DNA of 40,679 nucleotides, from the NCBI GenBank assembly GCA_964551895.1, contig CAZKEX010000001.1, forward strand, positions 5,020 to 45,698, in the 5' to 3' direction. Shown one piece after another: positions 23,211 through 39,829 of this stretch. Both the position numbers and the translations under genes were made by a program. The notes under the pieces are model-generated. The model ran no database searches, was not told the origin of the DNA, and saw only the letters and a program-made list of their open reading frames with translations. This DNA comes from an uncultured Caldilineaceae bacterium (GTDB lineage: Bacteria > Chloroflexota > Anaerolineae > Caldilineales > Caldilineaceae). Position 1 is the stretch's first letter, and each line of letters opens with the position of its first letter.

Positions 23211-23241
23211 GGTAGGGAAAAAAGTCCTTCCTGGGTTGGGG

Positions 23242-23337: not shown

Positions 23338-24428
23338 TCGATAGTCACGCGCCCATACTGATAATACGCCGCGCACGCGCCTTCGGACGAGACCATGGGC
23401 GCGCCGAGGGGCCGGTCCGGGGTGCAGAGGGTGCCGAAGGCGGGGCAGTCGTTGGGCTTTTGGAGGCCCTGCATGATCTCGCCGGCGATGCAGATCTCCG
23501 ATTCTTCGGCGGTGATGCCGGCGACCTGGAAGCGGGCTTCGGCGTCGAAGGCGGCATACTCCGGGCGCAGGCTGTAGCCGCTGGCCGGGATGACCCCGAT
23601 CCCCCGCCACGCCCGATCTGTGACCTGGAAGACCTGGCCCATGAGGGTCTGGGCAGGCAGGTTCCCCGCCCGGTTGACCGCCCGCACGTACTGATTTTCC
23701 ACGCCCCAACGCCCCTCTTCCAGCATGGCCACGGTCATGTAGATGCCTTGGAGCAGGTCCAAGGGTTCAAAGCCGGTGATGACCAAAGGCGTGCGGTATT
23801 GCTCGGCGATGGGCTCGTACTCCCAATAGCCCATGATGGCGCAGACGTGGCCAGCGGCCAGAAAGCCCTGGACCAGGCTGTTCGGCGATCCCAAGATGGC
23901 CTGCATGGCCGGGGGAACCAGCACGTGGGAGCTGAGAATGGAGAAGTTGGTCACGCCCAAATGGTTGGCCTGCCAGACCGCGGCCGCGTTGGCCGGGGCC
24001 GTGGTCTCGAAGCCCACGGCAAAGAAGACCACCTGTTTGTCCGGGTTCTGCTGGGCCAGCTTCACCGCGTCCAAGGGCGAATAGACCATGCGCACATCCC
24101 CGCCCCCGGCCTTGACACTGAGCAGGTCGGTGGTGGAGCCGGGCACCCGCATCATGTCGCCGAAGGAGGTGAAGATCACCTCCGGGCGCTGGGCGATGGC
24201 CACGGCCTTGTCGATCAGCTCCAGGGGGGTCACACAGACCGGGCAGCCGGGGCCGTGGACCAGGGTGATCAGCTCGGGCAACATGCGGTCGATGCCAAAC
24301 TTGATCAGCGTGTGGGTCTGCCCGCCGCAGATCTCCATCAGCGTCCACGGTCGGGTGGTGATCTGCTCGATGGCCCGGATAAATTTTTGCACATCGGCTT
24401 CGTTGCGGTATTCGTCGATGAATTTCAT
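23322..24428 (-). CDS. hypD: Hydrogenase maturation factor HypD
   Basis: 368 aa. [29 protein letters not shown] and the C-terminal [10 protein letters not shown] are canonical HypD motifs. Confidence 0.95.
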
Positions 24429-24446
24429 GGGATTCCTTATGTAAAA

Positions 24447-24530
24447 AATGAGTAAGGCGTAATGAGTAATTTTGCGTTGGAAAGCACTTGCCGACGAAAC
24501 AACGCAAATTACTCATTACGCCTTACTCGT
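24447..24530. repeat. Inverted pair of TAATGAG/TAAGGCG heptamer arrays between hypC and hypD
   Basis: aatgagtaaggcgtaatgagtaattttgcgtt (24447-24478) is almost perfectly complementary to aacgcaaattactcattacgccttactcgt (24501-24530). Confidence 0.9.
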
Positions 24531-24539
24531 TTGCCCTTA

Positions 24540-24794
24540 CTACGGTTGCGCAATCTCCAACTCCGCCAACTCCTCCATTTCGGCCAGGTATTGGAAGACG
24601 ATCTTGGCCTCCTCCTCGTCTACCTGGCTGATGGCGAAGCCCACGTGGACGAGTACATAGTCGCCGACCTGGGCTTCGGGGGTGTAGGCTAGACAGACAT
24701 CCTTCTGGATGCCGGAGAAGTTGACCCGGCCCATGGGCATGCCATCTGGGTTGGGGTCAATACGGGTGATCTTGCCGGGTACGCCGAGACACAT
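24540..24794 (-). CDS. hypC: Hydrogenase maturation chaperone HypC/HupF
   Basis: ORF 24540..24926. I moved the start to ATG 24794 (AGGAG upstream), giving the obligatory N-terminal MCLGVPG. Length is 84 aa. Confidence 0.92.
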   Translation of the reverse strand: MCLGVPGKITRIDPNPDGMPMGRVNFSGIQKDVCLAYTPEAQVGDYVLVHVGFAISQVDEEEAKIVFQYLAEMEELAELEIAQP

Positions 24795-24813
24795 GATGGT
24801 TCTCCTAAATTCG

Positions 24814-25010
24814 TAGGTGCGGTTTTTAACCGCACAAATGAGTTGGGTGCGCTCAAAATGAGTTGGCGGAGTCGGCATCCCTTCGACGGGCTCAGGACAC
24901 CGCCTCAGATGCCGAGCCGTTCGCATTTGAGAATGCTCACTCCTCGGCGTAACTCATCTTGAACACACCCAAATGAGTCAAGCGGATCGTGCGGTTGAAA
25001 ACCGCACCTA
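24814..25010. mobile_element. ~197-bp MITE-like element with 22-bp terminal inverted repeats, inserted between hypF and hypC
   Basis: TIRs are taggtgcggtttttaaccgcac (24814-24835) and gtgcggttgaaaaccgcaccta (24989-25010), matching at 21/22 positions. Each TIR is itself a small hairpin. The right TIR contains the hypF stop codon (25008-25010). Confidence 0.7.
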
Positions 25011-27434
25011 CCCAAGCCTTGCCGCGGCCACGGCCACCTGCCCCAGGCTGATCCCCCCATCGTTGGGCGGAACCTGGCGGTGGAGCAGCGCCTCAAAACC
25101 GGCCCGGCGCAAGGCCTGGGCGGTCTGCTCGGTGAGCCGTCGATTTTGGAAGCAGCCGCCGCTGAGGGCGATGCGGGGGTCGCCCACGGCTTGGGCCACG
25201 GCCACGGCCCCGGCCACCAAGCCATTGTGGAAACGTCCCGCCATGATACCGGGTTCCACGCCCCGGCGCAAGTCGGAGAGGATGGCGGCGATGGTGGGGC
25301 GCCAGTCGAGGAGGAGGGGATTGGGGATTGGGGATTGGGGATTGGGGATTGGGGGATTGGGGATTGGGGGATTGGAAGATTGGGAGATTGAGAAGGGATA
25401 GGCGCCGGTTTCCGATGGATCGGCGGCGTATTCTAGATCCATGGCGGCTTGGCCTTCGAAGGTGACCTGTTGGCGCAGGCCGATGAGGGCGGCGATGGCG
25501 TCGAAGAGACGACCGGCGCTGGTGGTGAGGGGGGCGTTGATCCCCTTGCGCAACATCTGGCCCAGGACGCGCCGCTCGGTGGCGGTCATGGCCTGGAGGG
25601 GGGGCAGGTCCATCTGATTCAACGCCTCTTCGCCCATGATCTCCCAGAGCAGGGCCAGGGCCACTCGCTTGGGCTGGCGCACGGCCGCATCCCCACCGGG
25701 CAGGCGGAAGGGGCGCAGATGGCCCACCCGCTCCACCCCCGCCGCATCCCCCAGCAGAAACTCCCCGCCCCAGATCGTGCCGTCCGGCCCGTAGCCCGTG
25801 CCGTCCCAAATGATCCCCAAGGCCGAACCGTCCACCCCGTTGTCCGCCAAACAGGCGGCCAGGTGGGCGTGGTGGTGTTGGACAGGGACCAATGGCGAAT
25901 GGCGAATGGCAAATGGTGTAGCGACTGATTGGTTAATCGGTTGATTGGTTGATCGACAATCTCCCAATCTCCCAATCTCTCCCTCGCCATTCGCCATTCG
26001 CCATTCGCCATTCGCCATTCGCGTGGACAGATAGTCCGGGTGCAGGTCGTGGGCGATGGCGGTGGGGGTGGCTGCGTAGAGGCGGAGGAAGTCGGCGATG
26101 ACGCGGTGGAAGGCGGCCAGGGACTCGGCGCTTTCCAGGTCGCCGATGTGTTGGCTGAGGAAGACGTTGCGGCCCACGCTGAGGGCGACGGTGTTTTTGA
26201 GGTGGGCGCCCACGGCCAGGATGGTGGGGGCGGGCCGGGGCAGAACCACGGGCAGGGGGGCGTAGCCCCGCGCCCGGCGCAGGAACTGGGACTGGCCGTC
26301 CACGATCCACAGCACGCTGTCGTCCACGTGCCGGGCGATGGGGCGGTTGTGGGTCAGGAAGGCGTCGGCGATGTGGCCCAGACGGTCCGCGGCCTCGTCG
26401 TTGTCGATGCAGATAGGTTCGTCGCTGAGGTTGCCGCTGGTGGCGACGAGGGGACGGTCAACCGACCGACACAATAGATGGTGGAGCGGGGTGGACGCCA
26501 CCATGATCCCGACGTTGGGATTTCCTGGGGCCACGGCACGGGCCAAGACACGGCTTTTTTCGTCCTTTTCCAAAAGAAGAATGGGGGCTTCTGCGGATAG
26601 CAGAAGCGCTTCGGCCTGTTGGGAGATGATGGCAAAGTGACGGGCCTGGGCCACGTCCCGGACCATGACGGCCAGGGGTTTGTGGGGACGGGGCTTGCGG
26701 TCCCGCAGACGTTGGACAGCGAGGGCGTTGGTGGCATCGGCCATGAGGTGGAAGCCGCCGAGACCTTTGACGGCGACGATTTGGCCAGCCTTCAACGCAT
26801 CGACTGCCCCCTGCAGTGCCTCGCCATTCGCCATCCGCCATTCGCCATTCGCCCCAAATCTGAGCGCTGGCCCGCACACCGGGCAGGCGTTGGGCTGGGC
26901 GTGGAAGCGGCGGTTGAGCGGGTCGGTGTATTCGGCGTGGCAGGCGGGGCAGAGGGGGAAGCCGGCCATGGTGGTGTTGGGCCGGTCATAGGGCAGGGCT
27001 TGGACGATGGTGAAGCGGGGGCCGCAGTCGGTGCAGTTGGTGAAGGCGTAGGCGTGGCGGCGGTCCGCGGGGTCCAACACCTCGGCCAGGCAGGCCGGGC
27101 AGGTGGCCAGGTCGGGCAGGACGAGGACGGTCTTGGGGCCGACGTGGTCGCTGTGGCGGATCTGGAAATCGGCGAAATCGGCGGGGTCGAGCTGTTCGGT
27201 GGTAAATTCCTGGATGCGGGCGTGGGGCGGGTGGTCCCGGCGGATGCGGGCCACGAAGCCGTCCAATTGGGCCGGGTCGCCCTGGGCCTCGATGAAGACG
27301 CCCCGGCTGTCGTTGATCACCCAGCCGGTGAGACCCAGATCCCCGGCCAGTCGGTAGACAAAGGGGCGAAAGCCCACCCCCTGCACCGCCCCCCGAATCT
27401 CGATCCGCACCCGCTGGGGACGCTCAACAGCCAT
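25008..27434 (-). CDS. hypF: Carbamoyltransferase HypF (acylphosphatase + 2 Zn-finger + YrdC + Kae1-like domains) carrying three in-frame repeat-encoded segments
   Basis: 808 aa with GGAGGG upstream of ATG 27434. Domain motifs: acylphosphatase GAVQGVGFRPFVYRLA; CPACLAEV...CTDCGPRFT and CPACHAEY...CPVCGP; VAVKGLGGFHLMADA; VQHHHAHLAAC. The repeat-derived peptides are ANGEWRMANGE, MANGEWRMANGEGEIGRLGDCRSTNQPINQSVATPFAIRHSP and SNPPIPNPPIPNPQSPIPNP. Confidence 0.93.
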   Translation of the reverse strand: MAVERPQRVRIEIRGAVQGVGFRPFVYRLAGDLGLTGWVINDSRGVFIEAQGDPAQLDGFVARIRRDHPPHARIQEFTTEQLDPADFADFQIRHSDHVGPKTVLVLPDLATCPACLAEVLDPADRRHAYAFTNCTDCGPRFTIVQALPYDRPNTTMAGFPLCPACHAEYTDPLNRRFHAQPNACPVCGPALRFGANGEWRMANGEALQGAVDALKAGQIVAVKGLGGFHLMADATNALAVQRLRDRKPRPHKPLAVMVRDVAQARHFAIISQQAEALLLSAEAPILLLEKDEKSRVLARAVAPGNPNVGIMVASTPLHHLLCRSVDRPLVATSGNLSDEPICIDNDEAADRLGHIADAFLTHNRPIARHVDDSVLWIVDGQSQFLRRARGYAPLPVVLPRPAPTILAVGAHLKNTVALSVGRNVFLSQHIGDLESAESLAAFHRVIADFLRLYAATPTAIAHDLHPDYLSTRMANGEWRMANGEGEIGRLGDCRSTNQPINQSVATPFAIRHSPLVPVQHHHAHLAACLADNGVDGSALGIIWDGTGYGPDGTIWGGEFLLGDAAGVERVGHLRPFRLPGGDAAVRQPKRVALALLWEIMGEEALNQMDLPPLQAMTATERRVLGQMLRKGINAPLTTSAGRLFDAIAALIGLRQQVTFEGQAAMDLEYAADPSETGAYPFSISQSSNPPIPNPPIPNPQSPIPNPLLLDWRPTIAAILSDLRRGVEPGIMAGRFHNGLVAGAVAVAQAVGDPRIALSGGCFQNRRLTEQTAQALRRAGFEALLHRQVPPNDGGISLGQVAVAAARLG
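25317..25393. repeat. (GGGGATT)n/(GAGATTGG) array inside hypF coding sequence
   Basis: ggggattggggattggggattggggattgggggattggggattgggggattggaagattgggagattgag. On the minus strand it is translated in-frame as SISQSSNPPIPNPPIPNPQSPIPNP. Confidence 0.9.
25889..26023. repeat. Composite repeat inside hypF: inverted (GCCATTC)n arrays flanking TTGATTGG and CAATCTCC units
   Basis: Order is ccaatggcgaatggcgaatggcaaatgg, then gattggttaatcggttgattggttgatcg, then acaatctcccaatctcccaatctc, then cgccattcgccattcgccattcgccattcgccattcgcg. It is read in-frame between the conserved HypF blocks HPDYLST and VQHHHAH. Confidence 0.9.
26818..26853. repeat. (GCCATTC)x5 array inside hypF coding sequence
   Basis: gcctcgccattcgccatccgccattcgccattcgcc. 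It encodes ANGEWRMANGE in the linker between the second Zn finger and the YrdC-like domain. Confidence 0.9.
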
Positions 27435-27481
27435 GATCCCACCCTCCTCTGAGGGGAGCCCATGAGACCCAAAAGGGATTG

Positions 27482-28168
27482 TCAGCTCTTGGCATGTTTG
27501 GCGAGTCCTTCCAGCTTTTCTCGATCGGAAATCATGAACTCTGTACGTTTGATCCGCACTACGCCTTCATCCGAGAACCGATACATCAATCTGCACACCA
27601 TCTCGCTTGTTGAACCGATCCGAGCGGCCATTTCGTCCAGGCTCATGTCTCGTTTCATATAGTCGCCCTCGGCATCCTCGCCGTAGTGGCTAAGGATAAG
27701 ACTCGCCAGACGGCTGGCGACGGGCTGAAAGGCCAACCCCTCGAGCATGTCGCTGGCCAGTTTCATCCGTGTGACCATCAAACGAGCCAACTCCCACGAT
27801 ACACGCCCATACTCGAACAGGATCGGCGTCAGGCTCTCTTGGGACCAGAGATGAATTTCGCTCTTCCGGTTGGTGATCAGTGCAACCTGCATGGGCATCT
27901 GTGTCTGAAAGAAGCCCATACCCCAAAAAACCTCCCCAGGTTTCATTGTAAAAAGGATCAATCTGCGCCCCTCGCTCGATTCTTTTATGGCGGTGACATT
28001 GCCACTCTCCACAATGAATAGATAAGGCCAATCGTCCCCGTGATGGCTTATCCAGTGATCCTTTGGATACTTTCGGGAGATCGCCAACTCGGCCAGGTTG
28101 CTTCTATCGGCCTCACTCAGGTGTGAGAAAACTGGGTTGTTGAGCAGTAACTTAGACAGCGACATCAT
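27482..28168 (-). CDS. Crp/Fnr family transcriptional regulator (no N-terminal Cys cluster; Dnr/NnrR-like class possible)
   Basis: 228 aa with a cNMP-binding beta-barrel region and a C-terminal HTH, MSLDEMAARIGSTSEMVCRLMYRFSDEGVV, carrying an E--(S/C)R-type recognition helix. GC is ~50%. It ends 47 nt upstream of hypF. Confidence 0.88.
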   Translation of the reverse strand: MMSLSKLLLNNPVFSHLSEADRSNLAELAISRKYPKDHWISHHGDDWPYLFIVESGNVTAIKESSEGRRLILFTMKPGEVFWGMGFFQTQMPMQVALITNRKSEIHLWSQESLTPILFEYGRVSWELARLMVTRMKLASDMLEGLAFQPVASRLASLILSHYGEDAEGDYMKRDMSLDEMAARIGSTSEMVCRLMYRFSDEGVVRIKRTEFMISDREKLEGLAKHAKS

Positions 28169-28239
28169 GGTCCCCTTCTCAGAAACTGAAAACGTCTGGT
28201 TGTTGACTTGCCTAAAGGCAAGGCATTGCAGAGAAGATC

Positions 28240-28255
28240 GTGATAAACTTCACAA
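28240..28255. promoter_or_regulatory. Candidate Crp/Fnr-family operator in divergent promoter region
   Basis: cGTGAtaaactTCACa matches TGTGA-N6-TCACA at 9/10 positions. It lies 72 nt upstream of the crp-like start and 88 nt upstream of the lipoprotein ATG. A second palindrome, CTTGCC-TAAA-GGCAAG, is at 28208-28223. Confidence 0.3.
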
Positions 28256-28342
28256 TATCGCCAACAAGCCCTTTTGTTCAGTCTTGTTGGCGAGAAATCG
28301 GGGTTTCAAACCATCAATAGTTCTTCAGAAAGGACAGGCGAA

Positions 28343-29158
28343 ATGAGGAAACCGTATCTCGTTCTTGCGATATTGCTTACTGTTGCCATGTTATTCTCGG
28401 CATGTACCCCCATTGCCCCTGGGTTGCCACCGCCTACGGCAAAGGCAGCGTCCGCCGTTGCGGTGGCCCCTGTTGACACGGCTGCGCCCCCAGCAGTAGA
28501 TGGGTTTGTATGGGATCAGGCCTATATTGCTGAAGTCCCTCCGATCATGATGATTGAACCATACTTCGGGATTTTTGGACAATCGGACGTCCCTGTTCCC
28601 TATTATTACGCAGAGGCCGTCAAATTAGCGGGTCATTCTTGTGGCGCTGTAACGGGCGCGTGGACGATTTCCCGCAAAGCGCTTGAAGTACTCTACCCCG
28701 ACGGAGAGATTCCGGTACGCGGTCAGATCGCTGTAGAGGCCCCCGGGGCCGAGGATGAATGGTTTGTCGGTGTGTTTGGCGAGGTCATTACCTTTGTCAC
28801 AGGCGCTGCGCCGAAAACAGGCTTTATCGGCGCAGAGTTTGGGAAAGCCAATCAGCTCTTTGTACGCCAAAACAAGATGGTCTACACAGAAGAGCCAACC
28901 GGCCAGCTTCATCCCATGAGAGAGTGGGTCTTCACCCGTCTTGATACAGGGGCAAAGGTGGGCGTCAAGTTCAATCTTGCCGTGATCACACCGATTGCAA
29001 CGCCTGAACGCCAGGCAATGGGACAAAAGATGGCCATAGGCGCAGCGACACCCGAAGAGGCCGCTGATTTTATCCAATACTGGAACGACAGGGCGACATT
29101 TGTATTGGAAAACGCAGATACCATGGACGGTTTCTTCACTGTCACAGTTTACGAATGA
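28343..29158 (+). CDS. Lipoprotein of unknown function (weak FmdE/FwdE-like HxCxG...TG....G...GK pattern)
   Basis: ORF 28274..29158. I moved the start to ATG 28343 (MRKPYLVLAILLTVAMLFSAC, lipobox). AGHSCGAVTGAW ... VITFVTGAAPKTGFIGAEFGKANQLF loosely resembles the FmdE-family motif order. The similarity is by eye only. Confidence 0.7.
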   Translation: MRKPYLVLAILLTVAMLFSACTPIAPGLPPPTAKAASAVAVAPVDTAAPPAVDGFVWDQAYIAEVPPIMMIEPYFGIFGQSDVPVPYYYAEAVKLAGHSCGAVTGAWTISRKALEVLYPDGEIPVRGQIAVEAPGAEDEWFVGVFGEVITFVTGAAPKTGFIGAEFGKANQLFVRQNKMVYTEEPTGQLHPMREWVFTRLDTGAKVGVKFNLAVITPIATPERQAMGQKMAIGAATPEEAADFIQYWNDRATFVLENADTMDGFFTVTVYE

Positions 29159-29184
29159 GCATAGAATGAGTGTGTCATCGTTCA

Positions 29185-29230
29185 CCCCTCGGCCCCGTTC
29201 GACATGAACTCAGCCGAACGGGGCCGGGGG
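29185..29230 (+). terminator. GC-rich hairpin downstream of lipoprotein gene (terminator/attenuator candidate, no clear U-tract)
   Basis: cccctcggccccgttcg-N13-cgaacggggccggggg, with a 12-bp perfect core stem. Confidence 0.4.
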
Positions 29231-29311
29231 ATGAGCGATGACGAATCAAGGGAGGCAGCGTCCGTGTTGTGTTGATCCAGTCTCGATTTTCTACAACCTA
29301 AGGGGCGTAAA

Positions 29312-30187
29312 ATGAGAGAAACTCCACAAAAAAACCGTATGGGCATGGCCATCGTTGCCATCGCGGTCGGTCTACTCATGATCTCAGTTATTCCGTACAT
29401 GGTACAGACTGCCCTTGAAAGAGTGCTGATCCACTTACTTGAGCATGTAAAAACAAATCCTGCCTTTTCCAGCGGTATTAAACTCTTCGACTTCTTCTAC
29501 CCGATCTGGCGAGCGCTTATCTTTGTGGCCGGCATTGCCTTGATCGTCATCTCCCCAGGGATCAAAAGAGGAGAAGAGTGGACCTATCCTCTGGCAATGG
29601 TTCTTTTCGCCCTACCCTCGATCGGCGGCATGTTCATGTTTCTACCCTATATCAGTTTTGTGCCCGGGTTCCCCCTTCCGCTGATCATCTCTGCTATTGG
29701 GTTGACAGGTTACTGGAGTTTCATCTTCTTGCGTAAGGCAGAGAAGATGCAAAAATGGACACGTTTCGGCGCATTGACCTTCATCGGCATGTTGGCCACA
29801 CATGCTTTCACCATTGGCGTCGGCGCCCAGCGCCAGATGTGGACCCGCCCTGGACACCCCCTGTACCAAGATTTCTCATGGTGGCTGTTCAATTGGGTTG
29901 GAGAGGTCAACTGGGTGGCGGTGATCCTGCTCGTCGCTTCGATTCCATTACTGGCGGTCGGCAGGCGCTCAGGCTGGTGGTTGGCAGTTATCGGCGCTGT
30001 CTCCATCCTGGCAATAGACGCCCCAACACAGTTCGTCCGCACAAGTACATTTGATTACCTTTACGGCTCGCTTCTTGCGATCGGCGTGTTGGTCTTCCTT
30101 TTGACCCCCTATTTCAAGAAACACCTGCTAAACGAAGCGGAAGCTGAGAGTCAATCTACAACCCATTCACCACTAGCAAAACCTTAA
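29312..30187 (+). CDS. Polytopic membrane protein (about 8 TM), unknown function
   Basis: 291 aa with ~8 hydrophobic helices by eye. The Trp-rich helix WWLFNWVGEVNWVAVILL is followed by GRRSGWWLAVIGAVSILA, and the next gene has the same arrangement. Confidence 0.75.
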   Translation: MRETPQKNRMGMAIVAIAVGLLMISVIPYMVQTALERVLIHLLEHVKTNPAFSSGIKLFDFFYPIWRALIFVAGIALIVISPGIKRGEEWTYPLAMVLFALPSIGGMFMFLPYISFVPGFPLPLIISAIGLTGYWSFIFLRKAEKMQKWTRFGALTFIGMLATHAFTIGVGAQRQMWTRPGHPLYQDFSWWLFNWVGEVNWVAVILLVASIPLLAVGRRSGWWLAVIGAVSILAIDAPTQFVRTSTFDYLYGSLLAIGVLVFLLTPYFKKHLLNEAEAESQSTTHSPLAKP

Positions 30188-30197
30188 GGAGCGTATC

Positions 30198-30983
30198 GTG
30201 AAAAACAACACTAAACTTGGAGCCGCTTTAGCCATCGTCGGTATCGTGGCCGGGCTACTAACATTCTATCTACTTGCCCTAACGTACAATCCGGTCATAG
30301 ACAGCCATGTCGCCGTTGGGCGGCCAGATGAGGCCAATACAGTGCGATTTGTATTTGCGTTCCTCGGTTGGCTGGGGGTAGCCGCCGGCGCACTTTGCGT
30401 ATCCGTGCTGTATGGCTTCTTAAAAAAGCAGCCGTGGGCGTGGTTTTGGGGAGTGGTGGCTGGCACTATTCTCCTGTTGTCCGGGTTTTTCCCGATGATT
30501 CCCGCTGCCGATGGCGGGGTGACGCCTATCACGGGCATCGTCTTCTTCTTGGCGGCCATCCTCTGGTTTGGGATGCTTTTCGTTGGTGGCGTCAACAAAA
30601 AGATCATTGCGCTTCTGTTCGTGACCGGATTGGCCTATGTGTTGACCTTTATCAACGGCGTGGCCCCCATCTCCAGATACCAGACCACAGAGGGTTTCTG
30701 GAACGGCTACTTTGTCATATCACAGCAGCTGAACTGGTGGAGCGCGGCAGCCTGGGCGGTCTTCAGCTTTGGTGTCCTTAAACAGAAATCCTGGGCGGTG
30801 CCCCTGGGTATCTTCGCCGGATCGTTGTCCATGATCGCCGGATTCCCAATGGCCATCAACAACATGCAGATCATGAACCGATTCTCCATGTTTTTGCCAG
30901 GCCCCATAATGAGCGCAATCATGCTCATTATTATCCTGCTGCCCAATACGCAGAAGCTTCTTGCAACCTGGCAAAACGAATAG
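30198..30983 (+). CDS. Polytopic membrane protein (about 8 TM), apparent paralog of 29312..30187
   Basis: GTG start at 30198 with AAGGAG at 30186-30191, 10 nt after the preceding stop. LNWWSAAAWAVFSFGVLKQKSWAVPLGIFAGSLSMIA parallels the upstream protein. Confidence 0.75.
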   Translation: MKNNTKLGAALAIVGIVAGLLTFYLLALTYNPVIDSHVAVGRPDEANTVRFVFAFLGWLGVAAGALCVSVLYGFLKKQPWAWFWGVVAGTILLLSGFFPMIPAADGGVTPITGIVFFLAAILWFGMLFVGGVNKKIIALLFVTGLAYVLTFINGVAPISRYQTTEGFWNGYFVISQQLNWWSAAAWAVFSFGVLKQKSWAVPLGIFAGSLSMIAGFPMAINNMQIMNRFSMFLPGPIMSAIMLIIILLPNTQKLLATWQNE

Positions 30984-31003
30984 CGTCTCTTTTCAACAAA
31001 CTG

Positions 31004-31094
31004 GAGAGAAACTGGGTTTTTGAACAATAGCTGTGCCATTCCAGAGATCGACAAAGACCCAGTTTCTCTCACCTTCCTGAGATACTGAGAAGGT
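31004..31094 (+). promoter_or_regulatory. Two consecutive hairpins in the leader of the 12-TM gene
   Basis: gagagaaactgggt (31004-31017) pairs with acccagtttctctc (31057-31070), a 14-bp perfect stem. It is followed directly by accttc (31071-31076) pairing with gaaggt (31089-31094). Confidence 0.4.
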
Positions 31095-31126
31095 ATACGA
31101 AACACTCAAGCATCGGAGTCGCGCTT

Positions 31127-32668
31127 ATGCAAGCTCTAACAACTCGTTTCAACTATCTCTTCCGCTCCACCAGGGGCTTGGCGTTGGTTGCCATCGCTGT
31201 GGTTGCTCTGATAACAGCTGTTTGGGGAACGCTATCCGGCCCGATGGTCGAGTGGGGTATACGCGATATCACAGTCAAGGTGTTGGGCATGGATCTGGTG
31301 CAGGCCGACCGTGAAGGCCGCATCATCATGCTCTATCACACCATCTCCATGACGGTTATTGCCATTGAAGTCTATTTCATGACCGAAATCCTGCCCATGA
31401 AACGCTATGAGCAGGTTTTCATCAACGCCACCATCACCGTGGGCTATCTCACTGCGGTCATCTTTGGCCTGTTCTTTGGCTATTTTGGCCACAACTTCGC
31501 CTTCCACGGTCTCTTCCTGGTTGGTCAGTCGTTGGTGTTTTTCGCTGGCCTACTGTTGGCCGCCGCCCTTTGGCCCTGGCGTAAAGAGTACCGTCTAGCC
31601 CCGGATTCGCCCTATGCCCACACCAAGAAAGGCACGGATCTAGAGCGTGCGGCCTTTTTCGTTATGGTCGTCATGACACTCATTTCCGCCACCTGGGGCG
31701 CTGTGGCTGGCTCCTTCTGGGCCAATGGACATGAGACCTTCTTGGCCGAAGATCTGATTCGCCTGCCAAACAAGGCGGCGCTTCAGAAGGCCATCATCGG
31801 CCACCTGCACATCATGCTGACCCTGGTCGCCGTCGCCATCACCTTGATTGTCGGTAGATGGATGGATTTTCAGGGCAAGCTTCATAAAGTCGCCATGCCC
31901 ATGATGATTCTCGGCACCATCGTCACCACCTTTGGGGCCTTGTCCATCGTCTGGCTTCCCTGGGGCCACACCACCATCTACGGCGGCTCGACCCTGATCC
32001 TGCTAGCCGCTCTATTCTACGTTATCTTCTCGTGGAACAAGCTGATCCAGGATCGCATCGCCGAGCAGGGCATCGAAAAGGCGACCTTCTTCCAGAAGAT
32101 CGCCGCCCTGCTGCATGACCCACTCAAGTTTGGCACTGGCTGGCAGATGGTCTTCATGAACTTCACGGTTAGTGGGATCGGCATCTTCATGGCCGTCAAG
32201 CTGACAGAGATCTTCCGTGTCTGGCCGCACCGGGAAGAGCGCATCATCTTGACCGGGCACTGGCATATTCTGGCAGGGCTCGTCGCCACGATTATCCTTC
32301 TCTACTACGGGGACCTCTCTGGTCTTAAAGGCAAGACTCGCAAATGGTACGGTTGGCTGATCATCATCGGCTCCAACATCGCCTTTGCCTCCGCCACAAT
32401 CTTCTCGATGAAGCGGCTCTTCGTCACCGAATACGAACAGCAGCCTGTGGTCAACACCCTCATGCTGCTGATGGACGGGGGGCTGGCCCTGCTTCTGATC
32501 ATACTTGCCATTTTCCTGGGATGGCGACTGATCGATCTATTCAGGAAAACCGGCGTCTGGAGCAAAGAATTTGCTGCGGAAAGGAAGTCTAACGCAGAAA
32601 TCGATCTGGCAGAACAGAAGCGCAAAATGGCAGAACTCCAGGCAACACTGGATGAGGTGTCAAAATGA
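31127..32668 (+). CDS. 12-TM His-rich membrane protein; candidate highly divergent heme-copper-oxidase/NOR subunit-I-like protein
   Basis: 513 aa with 12 hydrophobic helices by eye. His71 is in TM2 (LYHTIS). GHLH (H226/H228) is in TM6. GH281 follows TM7. GHWHILAGL (H378/H380) is in TM10. The C-terminal tail is charged and coiled. The stop overlaps the next gene's ATG (ATGA). Confidence 0.8.
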   Translation: MQALTTRFNYLFRSTRGLALVAIAVVALITAVWGTLSGPMVEWGIRDITVKVLGMDLVQADREGRIIMLYHTISMTVIAIEVYFMTEILPMKRYEQVFINATITVGYLTAVIFGLFFGYFGHNFAFHGLFLVGQSLVFFAGLLLAAALWPWRKEYRLAPDSPYAHTKKGTDLERAAFFVMVVMTLISATWGAVAGSFWANGHETFLAEDLIRLPNKAALQKAIIGHLHIMLTLVAVAITLIVGRWMDFQGKLHKVAMPMMILGTIVTTFGALSIVWLPWGHTTIYGGSTLILLAALFYVIFSWNKLIQDRIAEQGIEKATFFQKIAALLHDPLKFGTGWQMVFMNFTVSGIGIFMAVKLTEIFRVWPHREERIILTGHWHILAGLVATIILLYYGDLSGLKGKTRKWYGWLIIIGSNIAFASATIFSMKRLFVTEYEQQPVVNTLMLLMDGGLALLLIILAIFLGWRLIDLFRKTGVWSKEFAAERKSNAEIDLAEQKRKMAELQATLDEVSK

Positions 32669-33618
32669 AACGCACAATCTTCAGCCTACTCTTGATCAGC
32701 TTACTTGCAGCCGCCTGCGCGCCATCATCCGCCGTAGGCGCAATCACCCCGCCAATCATTGACACCGGTGTAGACCCGGACGCGTGGGCCACAATCCCTG
32801 CCGGGGAATTCCCCTACGGTCAGATGGACCACATGACCGCGGTGGATGAATATCAGATCATGATCACCGATGTCACTGTCGAGCAATACGTCAACTTTCT
32901 GAACGAAGCCCTGGCATTGGGTGATGTCAGCGTTGGCGAGTTTGAGGTCGAAGCCGGAGAGGTAATCCGGCGCGAGAACGGGGTCGGTGGCTACTATGGC
33001 GGCGAGCCTTTCCACGGCTATAAGCACGAAGAAGAGATCAAAGCCGGCGACCACCTCTACGTGTCCCTGGCAGAGGACAATGGCGTCCGTCTAACCTTCG
33101 ACGGGCAGACTTTCACCGGCATGGCAGCGTACGCCAACCACCCCATGAACATGGTGACCTGGTTTGGCGCCAACGCCTATTGCGAATACTATGACACACG
33201 CCTGCCAACCGAGGTCGAATGGGAGAAAGCCGCCCGGGGGACCGAAATCGTAAACGGACGTGGTCTTCCCTTCCCCTGGGGCGAAAAGATTGCGGCCAAC
33301 AACGCCAATTACTACTCTTCCTTCGATCTCTTCGAGAAGATATATGGCAAGTTGGGCAACACCACACCGGTCGGCTTCTACAATGGCCAAACCTACGATG
33401 GCTATGAAACCCTTGATTCGGCCAGTCCCTACGGCCTCTACGACATGGCCGGCAACGTGTGGCAATGGATGGGTGATGACTACCCTGACCAACACTATCG
33501 CCACATGCGGGGCGGCAGTTTCTACTCCTACGAAGTTGACCTGCGGGTTTGGAAATTCAACAGCGCTGGTCCACAGCACTACGCCCCGTCCATAGGGTTC
33601 AGGTGCGCAAAAGACTAG
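32665..33618 (+). CDS. Formylglycine-generating-enzyme (SUMF1/FGE-sulfatase, NirV-like) domain lipoprotein
   Basis: Lipobox MKRTIFSLLLISLLAAAC. FGE-domain blocks are VTWFGANAYCEYYDTRLPTEVEWEKAARG, YGLYDMAGNVWQWMGD, RGGSF and GFRCAKD. Confidence 0.88.
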   Translation: MKRTIFSLLLISLLAAACAPSSAVGAITPPIIDTGVDPDAWATIPAGEFPYGQMDHMTAVDEYQIMITDVTVEQYVNFLNEALALGDVSVGEFEVEAGEVIRRENGVGGYYGGEPFHGYKHEEEIKAGDHLYVSLAEDNGVRLTFDGQTFTGMAAYANHPMNMVTWFGANAYCEYYDTRLPTEVEWEKAARGTEIVNGRGLPFPWGEKIAANNANYYSSFDLFEKIYGKLGNTTPVGFYNGQTYDGYETLDSASPYGLYDMAGNVWQWMGDDYPDQHYRHMRGGSFYSYEVDLRVWKFNSAGPQHYAPSIGFRCAKD

Positions 33619-33810
33619 CTTGTGTCAGCAACAGGCCCCCCGGCCCCCAATTCTGGGGGAGGTCGTGGACTGTTCCCCCCAAGGTTGGGGGGCTAGGGGG
33701 GCGGGGGAGCAGGCGGTCGCCTTGCGTTAGCAACAGGCCCCCCGGCCCCCAACTTTGGGGGAGGTCGTGGACTATTCCCCCCAAAGTTGGGGGCTAGGGG
33801 GGCAGGGGAG
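33619..33810. repeat. Tandem repeat, 2 x ~102 bp (~90% identical), each with two C-run/G-run hairpins
   Basis: Unit 1 is 33619-33720 and unit 2 is 33721-33810 (cttg[t/c]gt[c/t]agcaacaggccccccggcccccaa..tgggggaggtcgtggact.ttccccccaa.gttggggg.ctaggggggc.ggggag). It is GC-rich within the low-GC island. Confidence 0.9.
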
Positions 33811-33899
33811 TGAACGATGACGATGGAGAGGCAGGAACCTAATCTCTGCCTCTCGTATTGACCAGAGATCGATTTCCAACATCAGATTGGGAGCCTATT

Positions 33900-34763
33900 A
33901 TGCCAGATTTCAAGACCAAGCTCCGCCTCTATTGGCCGCTTATCAAGAGCTTTCAGACTGCACTGCTTATCACCACTGGGTTGGCCGGGTTTATGAGTAC
34001 ACGCTGCCCAATCCTGAATTGGCAAACCGTGCTGGCTGTAACCGGCAGCCTATTCCTTGCCATTAGCGGCAGCACAGTCTTGAACATGTGGTACGATCGG
34101 GATATCGACGCCAAAATGGAGCGGACAAAAAATCGTCCCTTGCCAGCGGGCAAGATCTCTCCCCGGGAGGCGCTCATCCTCGGCCTGGTCTTGTCCACCC
34201 TGGGCGTCGGTTGGGCTGTCGCCCTCGACCCCCTCTACGGCCTCATCGTCTTCGCCGGTCTGTTCTTCGATGTGGTCATCTACACGATCTGGCTCAAACG
34301 ACGCACGGCCTGGGGCATCCTTTGGGGGGGAATCGCTGGCGGTATGCCCATCTTGGCCGGCCGGGCCTTGGGCACCGGGGAGATCGAATGGATAGGCATT
34401 CTTCTGGCGTTGGCTGTCCTCTTCTGGATCCCCACCCATATCCTCACTTTCAGCATGCGGTTCCACGACGATTACCAGCGCGCTGGCATCCCCACCTTCC
34501 CCTCCGTCTATGGCAATCGCGTCACCCAGATCACCATCGCCATCTCCAGCATGATTGCAGCCATCATGATGATCATCGCCGCATACGGTGTTGGCCTCAC
34601 CTTTGGCTATCTGCGCCTGATGGTCGTCCTCTCCTTTGGCCTGCTGCTTCTGGCCATCGGCAGCGCCACAAAGCCTTCCAAACAGACTAACTTTGGCCTG
34701 TTCAAATACGCGTCATTCTACATGCTCAGCACCATGATGCTATTGATGTTGGTTGCCGGATAA
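33900..34763 (+). CDS. ctaB: Protoheme IX farnesyltransferase (heme O synthase), UbiA family
   Basis: ORF 33858 (TTG)..34763. I prefer ATG 33900, which has GGGAG upstream. NMWYDRDIDAKMERTKNRPLPAGKIS and WIPTHILTFSMRFHDDYQRAGIPTFPSVYG match the two CyoE/CtaB signature regions. Confidence 0.88.
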   Translation: MPDFKTKLRLYWPLIKSFQTALLITTGLAGFMSTRCPILNWQTVLAVTGSLFLAISGSTVLNMWYDRDIDAKMERTKNRPLPAGKISPREALILGLVLSTLGVGWAVALDPLYGLIVFAGLFFDVVIYTIWLKRRTAWGILWGGIAGGMPILAGRALGTGEIEWIGILLALAVLFWIPTHILTFSMRFHDDYQRAGIPTFPSVYGNRVTQITIAISSMIAAIMMIIAAYGVGLTFGYLRLMVVLSFGLLLLAIGSATKPSKQTNFGLFKYASFYMLSTMMLLMLVAG

Positions 34764-34798
34764 TCAGGGTCACTGTCATCCAGCCAAAAGAGCAAACC

Positions 34799-35404
34799 AT
34801 GAAAAAAATGTCTGTGCTTGACCGAATACTCCTTCTGCTCACCGGGCTGCTTGCCGCCTATCAAATTGTTGTTGGCATTGATGAGACCGTGACCCTGTTC
34901 GTGGGGGCCTACATCATTGCCTTTGGCGTGCTGCTGATAGCTGGCCTATTGCTGATCATCATGGGGTTTGAGGTCTTGGATAGTCCACTGGTCGTCATCG
35001 TCTCCACCATCATCCCCCTCAGCCTCTCCCTGGGCCTGGTTGCCGAATATTTGCCCGCATCCACCACGCTCTATCTAGCTTTTGTTGTCGTCGGATTCCT
35101 GGCAGTGATGGTCACCCGCTACACCAACCCCGGCAAAGTTGCGACGATGGTTCTTGCCACAGTGCATGGCATCGCCGGCATGGTGATCTTTCTGCTTCCC
35201 ATCCTCTTTGTCCTGTGGGGCGAAATGGCTGGCGGATTCGCCTTGGTCGGTGTCGGCGGCGCGCTGATCGGCGTGGGAGGATTGCTGCTGGCATTTCTAA
35301 AGGCGGGAAAACCCATCTTGCCTCAAAAGACCATCCTAACCGTGCTGCCTGGCCTGTTGTTGCTGATGACAGCGGCTTTTGTGGCAGGATTTTCATTCGC
35401 GTAG
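34799..35404 (+). CDS. Polytopic membrane protein (about 6 TM), unknown function
   Basis: 201 aa, almost entirely hydrophobic helices. It starts 35 nt after the ctaB stop. Confidence 0.7.
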   Translation: MKKMSVLDRILLLLTGLLAAYQIVVGIDETVTLFVGAYIIAFGVLLIAGLLLIIMGFEVLDSPLVVIVSTIIPLSLSLGLVAEYLPASTTLYLAFVVVGFLAVMVTRYTNPGKVATMVLATVHGIAGMVIFLLPILFVLWGEMAGGFALVGVGGALIGVGGLLLAFLKAGKPILPQKTILTVLPGLLLLMTAAFVAGFSFA

Positions 35405-35448
35405 ATTGCAGATTCATTCACTTTCCTTTCGTTTCTCGATGAAACCAT

Positions 35449-35570
35449 GACGCTACTGCAAAGAGCAATTTCAACGCAAAGTGCGCAAAGAGGCACAAAG
35501 AGGCGCGGAGATGGCAGAGAAAAACCTGCCGTTCTTTGGGTTGAAAATTAGTTTTTGCAGTGGAGTCAAC
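35449..35570. mobile_element. Diverged member of the 143-bp palindromic element family, inside the low-GC island
   Basis: gacgctactgcaaagagcaatttcaacgcaaag ... gttgaaaattagtttttgcagtggagtcaac. The ends align with element A/B termini (gactctgctgcaaaaagccaattttcaccgcaaag ... ttagtttttgcagcggagtcac). Confidence 0.65.
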
Positions 35571-35597
35571 CACAAGATTCAGATAGGAGAAGATACC

Positions 35598-36284
35598 ATG
35601 TTTGGCAAATTGTTACGCATCGTTGGTCTTGTGTTGTTGGCGGTAACGGCCGTTATCACCCTGTTAAGTGGCATCGGCACAACCTGCGTCGCCCTAAATC
35701 CCACAAAATATAACATGGCAGCCATCACCCCCTACCAGTGGCTCTATATCCTCTACGTCATCGCTGGCATCATCATCGGCGTGATGGGCATCCTCGCCAC
35801 TGTGGCCCTGGCCAGAAGCAAACCCATGGCCTACCGCTCGGCGCTCATCGCTCTGACCCTGGGCCTCGTCACCGGGGGTCTGCACATGGCTACCTCCCGG
35901 GCGCTGCGGGGTAGCTCCATGCCGCTGGACTTTATCGTCTACGCAACCGTCGTCACCCTGCTCTATTTCCTGCTCCTCCGCATCCCCGGCGTCTGGAACC
36001 AGATCAACCTTGCCGACAAAGACGATAACACAACTGGGCTGGGCGCCGGCGTCGCCATGATCGTGGGCGGCATTGTTGTCCTCACCGTGCAGTTGTGGGC
36101 CGGGCCGACGCACGTGATCAACGGCATCAACTACGCGGACGTGTGGCACACACAGATGACGGTCGTCGGTGGGACGTTGACCGTGCTGGGGGCCAGCCTG
36201 CTCCTGGCCACCGTCATGAGCATTGCCCTGCCCTACCCCTTCCAGAGATTCAATGCCCAACCGGCCGAATCGTCAAATAATTAG
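35598..36284 (+). CDS. Polytopic membrane protein (about 6-7 TM), unknown function
   Basis: ORF 35481..36284. I moved the start to ATG 35598, which has AGGAGA at 35585-35590. It begins MFGKLLRIVGLVLLAVTAVITLL. The upstream part of the ORF is translated repeat. Confidence 0.7.
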   Translation: MFGKLLRIVGLVLLAVTAVITLLSGIGTTCVALNPTKYNMAAITPYQWLYILYVIAGIIIGVMGILATVALARSKPMAYRSALIALTLGLVTGGLHMATSRALRGSSMPLDFIVYATVVTLLYFLLLRIPGVWNQINLADKDDNTTGLGAGVAMIVGGIVVLTVQLWAGPTHVINGINYADVWHTQMTVVGGTLTVLGASLLLATVMSIALPYPFQRFNAQPAESSNN

Positions 36285-36291
36285 CCCCTCA

Positions 36292-36412: not shown

Positions 36413-37057
36413 CTACGCCCCGCGTTTCAGCAGCCACTCCATCCACCCATCCATCCCCGCGCCGGTTTTGCACGAGAGAATGAAGAGGGGGACGCCAGGG
36501 TTGACCATCTCCAGGCCCCGGTGGAAGTAGTCCACGTCAAACTCGAAGATCTCGATCATGTCGGCCTTGTTGAGGACCACGACATGGGCGGCGGCGAACA
36601 TGCCCGGATATTTGTAGGGCTTGTCGCTGCCTTCGGGGACGCTGGCCACGACCACATTGCGGGCCGTGCCCAGGGCAAAGTCGGCGGGGCAGACCAGGTT
36701 GCCCACGTTTTCCACAAAGAGCAGGTCGATCTCGTCCAGGGGCAGGTCGGCCAGGGCGGACTGGATCATGGGCGCGTCCAGGTGGCAGCCGCCGCCGGTG
36801 TTGATCTGGACCACGGGCACGCCCCGGGCCGCGATCTTGTCGGCGTCGATGCTGGCGGCCAGGTCCCCTTCGATGACGCCGGGGCGCTGGTCCGGGGGCA
36901 GGCGGTCCAGAGTGGCCAGGATCAGGCTGGTCTTCCCCGCGCCGGGGGAGGCCATGAGGTTGAGGCCAAAGATGCCCGCCCCGGCCAAGATCTCCCGGTT
37001 ACGGTCCGCCACCGCATCGTTGGCGCTAAGAATTTGTTTGACAACGGATACTTTCAT
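36413..37057 (-). CDS. hypB: Hydrogenase nickel-incorporation GTPase HypB
   Basis: ORF 36413..37594. I moved the start to ATG 37057 (MKVSVVKQILSAND...) because the upstream part is the antisense shadow of the SDR gene and repeats. Motifs are the P-loop SPGAGKTS, GGGCHLDA, ENVGNLVCP and NKAD. Confidence 0.92.
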   Translation of the reverse strand: MKVSVVKQILSANDAVADRNREILAGAGIFGLNLMASPGAGKTSLILATLDRLPPDQRPGVIEGDLAASIDADKIAARGVPVVQINTGGGCHLDAPMIQSALADLPLDEIDLLFVENVGNLVCPADFALGTARNVVVASVPEGSDKPYKYPGMFAAAHVVVLNKADMIEIFEFDVDYFHRGLEMVNPGVPLFILSCKTGAGMDGWMEWLLKRGA

Positions 37058-37104
37058 AACTGCATTTTCCGATCCACGAATCTTCACGAATCCACACGAA
37101 TCTA

Positions 37105-37171
37105 AACCAACCAACCAACAAACCAACCAACAAACCAACAAACAAACCAACCAACCAATCAACCAACCAAC
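37105..37171. repeat. (CCAA)n/(CAAA)n array between SDR and hypB
   Basis: aaccaaccaaccaacaaaccaaccaacaaaccaacaaacaaaccaaccaaccaatcaaccaaccaa. Its right end encodes the SDR C-terminal codons Q-L-V-G and the stop codon. Confidence 0.9.
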
Positions 37172-37932
37172 TGCCCGCCATCCACCACAAACGTGGCCCC
37201 GGTGGTGAAGCTGGATGCGTTGGAGGCCAAATAGAGGGCGGTACCGGCCAGTTCCGAGGCGTCGGCCATGCGGCCCTGGGGGATGGCCCTTACCACGGCG
37301 TTGTAGATCTGCTCGTTCTGCCACAGGGCGGCGCTGAATTTGGTTTTGACAAAACCGGGGGCAATGGCGTTGACCCGGATCTGCTGGCCGGCCAGTTCTC
37401 CGGCCAGGACTTCGGTGAGCATGAGCACCGCGGCCTTGCTGACGCAGTAGACGCCCATATTCTGGATGGGCGTCTTGCCCGCCACGGAGGCCATGTTGAT
37501 CACGCTGCCGCCCCCCCGCTGGGCCATACTGGCGGCCACGGCCTTGACCATGCGGAAGTAGCCGACCACGTTGACATCCATGATCTTGGCCCAATGGCTC
37601 TCCTCCGCGGTCATGATGGGGCCGAAGTGGGGGTTGGTGGCGGCGTTGTTGACCAGAATGTCCACGCCGCCGAAGGCGCCGACCGTGCGGGCAACCAGGG
37701 CATCCACGGCCTCCACATCCCCGGTGTGGGCGGCTACGGCCAGGATCTCCCCGCCGATCTCGGCACGGAGCTGGGCGGCGGCCTCGTCCAGATCCGCCTG
37801 CTTGCGGCTGGCGATCACCACCCGCGCCCCGGCCCCGACAAAAGCCTTGGCAATCTCAAAACCGATGCCCCGGGATCCGCCGGTGACAATGGCGACTTTG
37901 CCGGTGAGGTCGAAGAGGGAGGGGTTGGGCAT
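37159..37932 (-). CDS. Short-chain dehydrogenase/reductase (SDR) family oxidoreductase
   Basis: ORF 37159..38040. I moved the start to ATG 37932 ([24 protein letters not shown]). Motifs [12 protein letters not shown] and the YCVSK catalytic Tyr-x3-Lys are present. Confidence 0.9.
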
Positions 37933-39782: not shown

Positions 39783-39829
39783 TTGGTTGATTGGTTTGGT
39801 TGGGCGATTAGGGATGCTCACACATTGTT

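Follow-up and report, generated by a model that had tools for sequence, protein, structure and literature searches.

A 12-transmembrane protein family with a predicted heme-copper oxidase fold and seven invariant histidines, encoded beside a heme O synthase

Gene and protein layout

The window analysed here is the whole stretch of 40,679 nucleotides from an uncultured Caldilineaceae bacterium (assembly GCA_964551895.1, contig CAZKEX010000001.1, forward strand, positions 5,020 to 45,698). It contains a gene for a 513-aa membrane protein with 12 transmembrane (TM) helices, which is followed by genes for an exported lipoprotein of the FGE-sulfatase fold and for a heme O synthase, and which has a divergently transcribed CRP/FNR-family regulator gene upstream (Table 1). 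The predicted fold of the 12-TM protein is that of subunit I of the heme-copper oxidases (HCO) and NO reductases (NOR), seven of its histidines are invariant in the family, and we lean towards the view that the gene encodes the core subunit of an unrecognised, very divergent branch of the HCO/NOR superfamily.

The initial annotation of this locus, made from the letters by eye, had described a protein of 513 aa with 12 TM helices, and the open reading frame (ORF), a Kyte-Doolittle scan that gave 12 hydrophobic segments and an AlphaFold2 (AF2) model all agreed with it. The histidines that it listed (H71, H226, H228, H281, H378 and H380) were each found in the quoted context. H281, which had been put just after TM7, is indeed residue 281, but in the model it belongs to the first helical turn of TM8 (helix 280-313), separated from TM7 by a turn of 5 residues. 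All six listed histidines were conserved, but a seventh invariant one, H127, had been overlooked; it lies at the start of TM4 (codon 31505-31507).

The N side of the membrane has 33 lysine and arginine residues, the P side 12. The protein is therefore assigned an N-in/C-in topology, which puts all seven invariant histidines near the outer (P) face, as are the ligands of COX1. The long C-terminal helix (residues 477-512) is predicted to be cytoplasmic, and it was variable or absent in distant homologs.

Family size, conservation and distribution

More than 3,169 clusters at 90% identity matched the 513-aa protein at E<=1e-3, and the top 120 of these were 71-100% identical to the query with a length of 510-540 aa. 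At 50% identity only 292 clusters were obtained (exhaustive phmmer, 1.84 billion representatives), thus the family is compact and self-contained.

Conservation was read from an alignment of 222 members, reaching down to ~22% identity. H71, H127, H226, H228, H281, H378 and H380 were each kept in 220-222 of the 222 members (H71 in 221, H127 in 222, H378 in 221 and H380 in 220), so every histidine of the initial list, for which conservation in homologs had been proposed as a check, was retained at >=99%. The other six histidines (122, 165, 202, 253, 330 and 368) varied freely in the same alignment, which indicates that the histidine pattern is more than chance. R65, Y70, Y119, E208, R212, E371, W379 and D396 were conserved at >=97%.

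Through a scan of one genome per GTDB species, relatives were found in at least 586 sequence stretches. The best 80 of these were 65-81% identical and came mostly from metagenome-assembled genomes (MAGs) of Anaerolineae and other Chloroflexota, with further hosts in Calditrichia, Melioribacteraceae, Spirochaetales, Marinimicrobia and one Bacteroidota MAG. The family as a whole spans Chloroflexota, Calditrichota, Melioribacteraceae, Spirochaetota, Thermoproteota and Asgard archaea. Members at 22-43% identity were found in Infirmifilum lucidum (Thermoproteota; cultured, genome complete), in Candidatus Hodarchaeales and in Promethearchaeota MAGs, and these archaeal and distant members retain all seven histidines. 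No description of the family was found by full-text searches of the literature. It is a large, unannotated and unnamed family; its fold and superfamily are known ones, and what is new is the ligand set, the partner and the repeat signature.

Predicted fold

The AF2 model, built from a modest alignment of 26 sequences, had a mean pLDDT of 88.8 and a pTM of 0.90, and consisted of 12 long helices plus the C-terminal helix. In a Foldseek search against PDB, the top 23 matches were all subunit I of HCO or NOR, including ba3, cbb3 CcoN, bo3, aa3/mitochondrial COX1, cNOR and qNOR (TM-score 0.40-0.57, probability 0.98-1.00, ~512-560 aligned columns). The best was Thermus thermophilus ba3 (E=3.7e-3, TM-score 0.57/0.53, ~526 columns), and the cNOR chain 3o0r_B gave a TM-score of 0.44/0.49. 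The non-HCO matches among the 50 listed (transporters, pyrophosphatases, GPCRs and others) all had a TM-score of <=0.23. The protein is thus predicted to have the 12-helix core with three pseudo-symmetric four-helix arcs that is characteristic of HCOs. A different fold, for example that of a transporter, would have spoken against the initial annotation, but the Foldseek ranking pointed to the HCO/NOR fold.

Internal triplication

By its sequence, the 12-TM protein is a triplication of a 4-TM unit. By hhalign of the family sub-alignments, unit 2 matched unit 3 with P=8.8e-10 (probability 96.5%), unit 1 matched unit 3 with P=9.6e-6, and unit 1 matched unit 2 with P=2.4e-3, while reversed controls gave P>=0.01. 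The second helices of the three units carry the equivalent segments REGRIIMLYH71, QKAIIGH226LH228 and REERIILTGH378WH380. H127 is equivalent to H281, both at the start of a fourth helix, and TM12 contains no histidine.

When canonical HCO subunit I was split in the same way, units 1 and 3 (CyoB 50-218 versus 378-522) showed a weak but above-control similarity (P=9.3e-5, probability 59%), and hhalign revealed no similarity for the other unit pairs. The 12-TM protein is therefore a version of the three-arc HCO architecture with markedly higher symmetry. Seven histidines on this repeat allow two readings: either two hemes with a metal site of three or four His, or as many as three hemes of the bis-His type.

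Profile-profile comparison with HCO subunit I

For profile-profile comparison, the HCO profile was composed of E. coli CyoB, seven plasmid-borne A-type subunits I, and FixN and NorB of pSymA. The family matched this combined A, C and NOR profile with P=1.7e-4 (probability 50%, 352 columns), and reversed-sequence controls gave P=0.2-0.3. A bona fide pair used for calibration, the A-type profile against the single NorB sequence, gave P=1.2e-4, and this NorB matches PF00115 at E=1e-75. With the A-type sequences only, the global mode of hhalign mis-registered TM1-4, and this was corrected by adding FixN and NorB. By greedy extension the alignment covers TM1 to TM12.

The CyoB ligand numbers are backed by invariant alignment columns. 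In this register, G225-H226 corresponds to CyoB G283-H284, the TM6 CuB ligand, and H228 to E286, which has no ligand role in CyoB. H281 and T282 correspond to H333 and H334, the first and second His of the TM7 pair. H378 corresponds to H419, the high-spin heme ligand, and H380 to H421, the low-spin heme ligand, so that the TM10 HxH of the HCOs is present, only at the level of motif and alignment, as H378-W-H380 versus H419-F-H421. E371 corresponds to N412, which we take to be the position of the bovine Mg ligand D369, and the MKR of residues 428-430 to the TRR of CyoB that holds the invariant Arg pair R481/R482. H71 falls <=5 residues from CyoB H106, and a gap-free shift at TM2 brings HxxxM together in both proteins.

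The initial annotation had pointed to three congruences with COX1. Two of them, the TM6 Gly-His and the TM10 HxH, fell on CyoB ligands, and the TM2 His came within 5 residues of one. Its statement that the TM7 HH pair and the Tyr are missing was borne out, with T282 at the position of the second His and the motif GHLHIML without Tyr.

Gene context

Gene context was counted at 81 loci by tblastn and ORF clustering, and the features of the window are collected in Table 1.

Table 1. Features of the 12-TM gene, its product and the neighbouring genes (positions of the window)
Feature	Position	Strand	Remarks
HCO-subunit-I-like 12-TM protein, 513 aa	31127-32668	+	ATG-started ORF, translation
Hydrophobic segments TM1-TM6			residues 18-36, 66-84, 97-115, 129-147, 175-193, 223-241 (Kyte-Doolittle)
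Hydrophobic segments TM7-TM12			residues 259-277, 283-301, 341-359, 373-391, 410-428, 445-463 (Kyte-Doolittle)
Repeat unit 1, residues 10-150, TM1-4	31154-31576	+	H71, H127
H71	31337-31339	+	TM2
Repeat unit 2, residues 165-318, TM5-8	31619-32080	+	E208, H226, H228, H281
E208	31748-31750	+	repeat unit 2
H226	31802-31804	+	TM6
H228	31808-31810	+	TM6
H281	31967-31969	+	TM8 start
Repeat unit 3, residues 325-475, TM9-12	32099-32551	+	E371, H378, W379, H380
E371	32237-32239	+	repeat unit 3
H378	32258-32260	+	TM10; W379 between H378 and H380
H380	32264-32266	+	TM10
C-terminal long charged helix, residues 477-512	32555-32662	+	AF2 secondary structure; K/R-rich tail
FGE-sulfatase-fold lipoprotein, 317 aa	32665-33618	+	PF03781 E=1.6e-36; lipobox C18
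Heme O synthase (CtaB/CyoE)	33858-34763	+	TIGR01473, 236 bits vs cutoff 210
7-TM membrane protein, 201 aa	34799-35404	+	invariant H123; conserved in loci
Membrane protein, listed ORF 267 aa	35481-36284	+	no family match in Pfam/NCBIfam
Multi-TM protein, 261 aa, upstream	30198-30983	+	weak sub-threshold DUF7144; 33/81 loci
Multi-TM protein, 291 aa, upstream	29312-30187	+	weak sub-threshold DUF7144; 26/81 loci
Lipoprotein-like protein, 294 aa	28274-29158	+	lipobox; no family match; 7/81 loci
CRP/FNR-family regulator	27482-28168	-	cNMP_binding + HTH_Crp_2; divergently transcribed

In the window, the stop codon of the 12-TM gene and the start of the FGE-fold gene overlap; the latter gene was found directly downstream in 78 of the 81 loci, often with an overlap. 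In one member of the family (P0122, 785 aa) the FGE domain is joined to the C-terminus of the 12-TM part through an extra hydrophobic segment, which places it outside the membrane, over the His-bearing face. The only Cys residues of the lipoprotein are C18 (lipobox), C173 and C314. The catalytic Cu-binding Cys pair that true FGE has near its C-terminus is absent. Across 82 homologs, C18 and C314 are among the invariant residues and an active-site pair is not; H121, E122, H159 and H277 are conserved.

The heme O synthase gene, placed two genes downstream by the initial annotation, lies there and scores above its family cutoff (Table 1). It was present in 73 of the 81 loci, at about +2.5 kb. Directly after each of two distant members, P0171 (Hodarchaeales) and P0130, comes a gene of the UbiA family that matches heme O synthase best (204 and 177 bits, respectively, against the cutoff of 210), and no FGE gene was found at either locus. 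For three further distant members (P0147, P0162 and P0204) the contigs were too short to show a useful context. Of the partners, heme O synthase is thus conserved most deeply, and the FGE subunit is confined to the main bacterial clade.

Further downstream, the gene for the 201-aa protein was found in 59 loci by tblastn (about +3.4 kb) and in 66 by ORF clustering, often as two tandem paralogs. The 267-aa protein was found in 41 loci at about +4.1 kb, and the median length of its homologs was 226 aa. The 201-aa protein was considered as a subunit III, and this was dropped because its AF2 model (pLDDT 74) matched merely generic 7-TM bundles in Foldseek (GPCRs, rhodopsins and myomaker, all E>0.1). 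Upstream, the 291-aa and 261-aa proteins are a variable accessory module. The CRP/FNR regulator has no FNR-type N-terminal Cys cluster; such a regulator lies within 8 kb in 31 of the 81 loci, and it also adjoins the distant member P0130. No canonical HCO subunit I was detected by the A-type hidden Markov model (HMM) within 10 kb in any of the 81 loci.

In about 17 of the 81 loci (including L035, L042, L048, L052 and L059, and not in the window) a gene upstream on the same strand encodes a membrane polyferredoxin that resembles NapH/NosR, is ~279 aa long and has Cys-rich motifs of the 4Fe-4S type. It is a candidate for the electron donor on the quinol side.

The gap between the FGE-fold gene and ctaB is filled by a 102-bp unit repeated in tandem (33619-33810, 1.9 copies, 91% match). 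The second copy contains a G/C-rich inverted repeat of 24 nt that is 92% complementary, and since the copies agree with each other at 86-91%, one is probably present in the first as well. The unit resembles a REP/MITE element, or a terminator or attenuator that splits the operon.

In a related Chloroflexi locus (L001), a Cu-type P-type ATPase, an HMA protein and two more CRP/FNR regulators are encoded 5-9 kb off (16705-18840 and 18991-20615 of that locus). This single locus could hint at copper supply.

Proposed function and points against it

The results above show a predicted fold, conserved residues, an operon, one natural fusion and an internal triplication. The following proposal on heme and metal binding, on the ligands, on the electron donor and on the substrate goes beyond them by inference. 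The 12 helices would form the three-arc fold of HCOs. H71 in TM2 and H380 in TM10 would be the axial ligands of a low-spin heme, and H378 in TM10 the proximal ligand of a high-spin heme, which would be heme O supplied by the dedicated CtaB of the operon. Heme O synthase genes are common in HCO operons, as in cyoABCDE and in the operon of eNOR (bioRxiv 10.64898/2026.01.22.701106). Next to the high-spin heme, a non-heme metal (Cu or Fe) would be bound by H226 or H228 together with H281, and H127, E208 or E371 may add to this site. The site would be a remodelled CuB/FeB without the cross-linked Tyr, as in NORs; H228 or H127 might stand in for the missing CuB His. R65, R212 and K429, conserved basic residues of the outer face, run counter to the positive-inside trend, and they seem to be placed where heme propionates would need counter-charges, in support of this arrangement.

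As neither a cytochrome c nor a cupredoxin subunit is encoded, the electron donor would probably be menaquinol or, in some loci, the NapH-like FeS protein. The place of subunit II on the outer face would be taken by the exported FGE-fold lipoprotein. The enzyme would probably reduce a small oxidant, either O2 or NO, so as to scavenge or detoxify it; its hosts are mostly anaerobic, and it would be controlled by the CRP/FNR-type regulator. Scavenging of O2 or NO, instead of energy-conserving aerobic respiration, is what the absence of the Tyr, the conserved Glu residues, the CRP/FNR regulator and the anaerobic way of life of the hosts point to, and this role is the weakest step of the argument.

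Several results weigh against assigning the family to the HCO/NOR superfamily. Searches of Pfam, NCBIfam and PDB by phmmer and hmmsearch gave nothing relevant for the query, for a 26-sequence profile or for the 26 members one by one, even at E<=1-10. PF00115 did not match the query or 25 homologs at E<=1, and the sequence and profile searches of PDB found no HCO chain, the best sequence match being claudin-4 (E=3.9, noise). An HMM from eight A-type HCO sequences, used for calibration, detected rhizobial FixN (E=1e-8) and NorB (E=2e-7), but among all ORFs of the 81 loci it found no member of the family (best E=0.35), which puts the family well outside the A/B/C/NOR radiation. The probability of the hhalign match to the HCO profile was merely 50%. 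Unit by unit, the family and HCO repeats matched weakly and without a unique register (best unit 2 versus HCO unit 3, P=1.1e-3), so the register rests on the full-length coverage and the Foldseek alignments. The three-His CuB/FeB set, one His of TM6 and the TM7 pair, is incomplete with T282 at the second TM7 position, and no cross-link Tyr was found at or near the position of CyoB Y288. No cupredoxin or cytochrome c was found among the operon partners (Pfam) or the frequent gene clusters of the 81 loci, the hosts include strict anaerobes such as Infirmifilum lucidum, and the threefold repeat with seven histidines fits a three-heme arrangement equally well.

The initial annotation had raised a very divergent HCO with a remodelled active-site metal centre, or else a convergent di-heme membrane protein. 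The fold and the profile-profile comparison spoke for the first idea, but the absence of a PF00115 match and the incomplete three-His CuB set did not. Of the profile checks it had proposed, those against the COX1 (PF00115) and NnrS HMMs were negative and the profile-profile comparison with HCO/NOR was positive (P=1.7e-4).

A bolder form of the HCO assignment, which we consider doubtful, makes the family a sister lineage of all known HCOs, or one of ancestral grade, that has kept the original triplication of a His-bearing 4-TM unit. H127 and either H226 or H228 would form a third cofactor site, in a pore which is filled by side chains in canonical oxidases. The FGE-fold outer subunit would help a chemistry not seen in HCOs, and the family would be the real client of the "orphan" heme O synthases of anaerobes and Asgard archaea, in which heme O synthesis is now taken as a marker of aerobic respiration.

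Alternative explanations

The protein may instead be a quasi-symmetric multi-heme protein on the HCO fold that lacks a binuclear centre and acts as a quinol-linked conduit to the outer face, which seems to us rather unlikely. Up to three bis-His hemes could be formed, e.g. by H71 and H380, H378 and H228, and H226 and H127, with H281 spare, and the conduit would perhaps feed the FGE-fold lipoprotein, fused in P0122, as the catalytic or substrate-binding part. The triplication gives equivalent histidines at H71, H226/H228 and H378/H380 and pairs H127 with H281, and the HxH of TM6 resembles that of TM10 and could serve two pockets. H228 aligns with the position of CyoB E286, which faces "pore A" in canonical oxidases, and H127 has no counterpart among the HCO ligands. 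However, H127 and H281 lie at helix starts, about 7 residues shallower than H71, H226 and H378, which is awkward for axial ligation at the same depth. Furthermore, the distant branches with all seven histidines have no FGE partner, the FGE partner has no obvious redox-cofactor motif, and the dedicated heme O synthase implies a high-spin pocket of HCO type, to our knowledge the only cofactor use of heme O.

Less probable still, and in our opinion quite unlikely, is a protein that handles or modifies heme O downstream of CtaB, either an oxygenase like heme A synthase or a chaperone/insertase. The tightest link across bacteria and archaea is indeed that to heme O synthase, and ctaA and ctaB are classically adjacent. 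The histidines 71, 127, 226 and 281 are numbered much like His60, His123, His216 and His278 of CtaA from Bacillus subtilis. CtaA/Cox15 is also composed of repeated 4-helix units with His on helices 2 and 4. CtaA has 8 TM helices and the protein described here has 12, for which the fold of HCO subunit I is predicted. PF02628 (COX15-CtaA) did not match any of 26 members at E<=1, and no CtaA chain was among the 50 Foldseek matches listed, which were headed by HCO subunit I. An identity with CtaA/Cox15, which the His numbering and the ctaB adjacency had prompted, was rejected on these Pfam and Foldseek results. In addition, no gene for a canonical HCO client was found within 10 kb in the 81 loci, and a chaperone would not be expected to hold 65-81% identity across phyla, or to carry a fused FGE domain.

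A convergent 12-TM protein unrelated to HCOs, either a transporter or one whose outer His/Glu cluster binds or transports Cu, Ni or Zn, would agree with the lack of HMM-level HCO homology, with the Cu P-type ATPase and HMA gene ~5 kb away in L001 and with the position of the island among hyp (Ni-insertion) genes in the window, but it is highly improbable given the profile-profile match well above controls, the conserved linkage to heme O synthase, the TM-scores of <=0.23 for MurJ, MATE, pyrophosphatase and complex I antiporter-like folds (0.40-0.57 for HCOs), and hyp neighbours that are explained by insertion of a low-GC island and are absent from the frequent gene clusters of the 81 loci. The transporter reading was rejected on the same TM-scores of the transporter and antiporter-like folds.

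Comparison with known systems

Among the characterised enzymes, T. thermophilus ba3 (CbaA; PDB 3S3B/3S8F) shares with the 12-TM protein the 12-TM core and the His on TM2, on TM6, at the TM7/8 turn and in the TM10 HxH. Its ligands, which we take to be H72, H233, H282/H283 and H384/H386, are numerically near H71, H226/H228, H281 and H378/H380. However, the two are only 13-15% identical and their relationship is not detected by HMM. The second TM7 His and the Tyr of ba3 are missing from the 12-TM protein, which has H127 and H228 as extra invariant residues, an FGE-fold lipoprotein where ba3 has a CuA subunit II, and a triplication that is visible in the sequence.

With E. coli bo3 and qNOR the likeness lies in heme O as the likely high-spin cofactor and in the lack of a cytochrome c/CuA entry subunit, which makes quinol the likely donor. 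As in cyoABCDE, heme O synthase is encoded in the operon, and the CyoB profile alignment is in register from TM1 to TM12. CyoB is a strong match to PF00115, whereas the 12-TM family shows none; counterparts of CyoA, CyoC and CyoD were not found, and the quinol-site residues of CyoB could not be identified in the 12-TM protein.

The likeness to NORs (cNOR NorB, qNOR and eNOR/sNOR/gNOR) includes the fold, the lack of an active-site Tyr, the invariant E208 and E371 near the His cluster and the adjacent CRP/FNR-type regulator, and for eNOR also an operon with heme O synthase. In contrast to the 12-TM family, NORs keep all three canonical histidines and match PF00115. As far as the alignment shows, the Glu residues of the family are not at the NOR positions, and no NorC or other cytochrome c partner is encoded here.

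NnrS (PF05940) is likewise a 12-TM membrane protein with conserved His and is tied to NO-responsive regulons; we know of no solved PDB structure for it. PF05940 did not match the query or its homologs, and hhalign of the family against NnrS of Sinorhizobium meliloti gave P=0.4, which is noise. An identity with NnrS was rejected on these grounds.

HCOs carry out aerobic respiration and NO reduction, and it has long been asked how they arose and what their ancestral activity was. A protein family with the HCO fold, a threefold repeat and a different His set could serve as an outgroup-like comparator for the origin of the fold and of the binuclear centre. Were the reduction of O2 or NO true, it would be an overlooked sink in anoxic sediments and digesters, and an FGE-fold partner replacing subunit II would be a new respiratory enzyme architecture. 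Surveys of Anaerolineae and Heimdallarchaeia that score cyoE/COX10 as evidence for aerobic respiration may have counted the 12-TM operon instead. Heme O biosynthesis has been reported in all Heimdallarchaeia lineages (bioRxiv 10.1101/2024.07.04.601786), and an unrecognised heme O client bears on how these genes are interpreted.

Genomic surroundings

The gene cluster from the CRP/FNR regulator to the 267-aa protein (27480-36290) has a GC content of 52-57%, against 61-68% in the flanks (22146-27434 and 36413-37591), and is flanked by hypE/hypD/hypF and by a hypB-like gene, which are all encoded on the minus strand. The cluster resembles a horizontally acquired island of ~8.8 kb inside a NiFe-hydrogenase maturation cluster, with which the operon identity of 65-81% across phyla fits. 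The adjacency to hyp genes was also considered as a functional link, and was rejected in view of the low-GC insertion and of the lack of hyp among the frequent clusters of the 81 loci.

Perfect or near-perfect microsatellites of 7 nt (GGGGATT, TCGCCAT, CAATGCA, CGCCATT and TCCCCGA) were found in the window. Three lie inside the 808-aa HypF ORF (25316-25390, 25984-26022 and 26821-26853) and others at 11753-11872, 16664-16726 and 39829-39875. The HypF ORF reads through the heptamer arrays as the peptide repeats MANGEWRMANGE and NPPIPNPPIPNPQSPIPNP, which is odd for a conserved maturation enzyme.

On S. meliloti pSymA (L093), a gene between nnrS and norB (28235-29590, minus strand) encodes a very hydrophobic protein of 452 aa with no Pfam match, which is unrelated to the 12-TM family (hhalign P=0.27).

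A surface protein of 2,307 aa is encoded at 2178-9101 of the window on the minus strand, with SdrD_B, DUF7507, SpaA, Big_1, GEVED and thioester (TED) domains. Its gene contains an internal tandem repeat of 354 bp (4561-5579), and the product is probably a cell-surface protein of the covalent-adhesin type.

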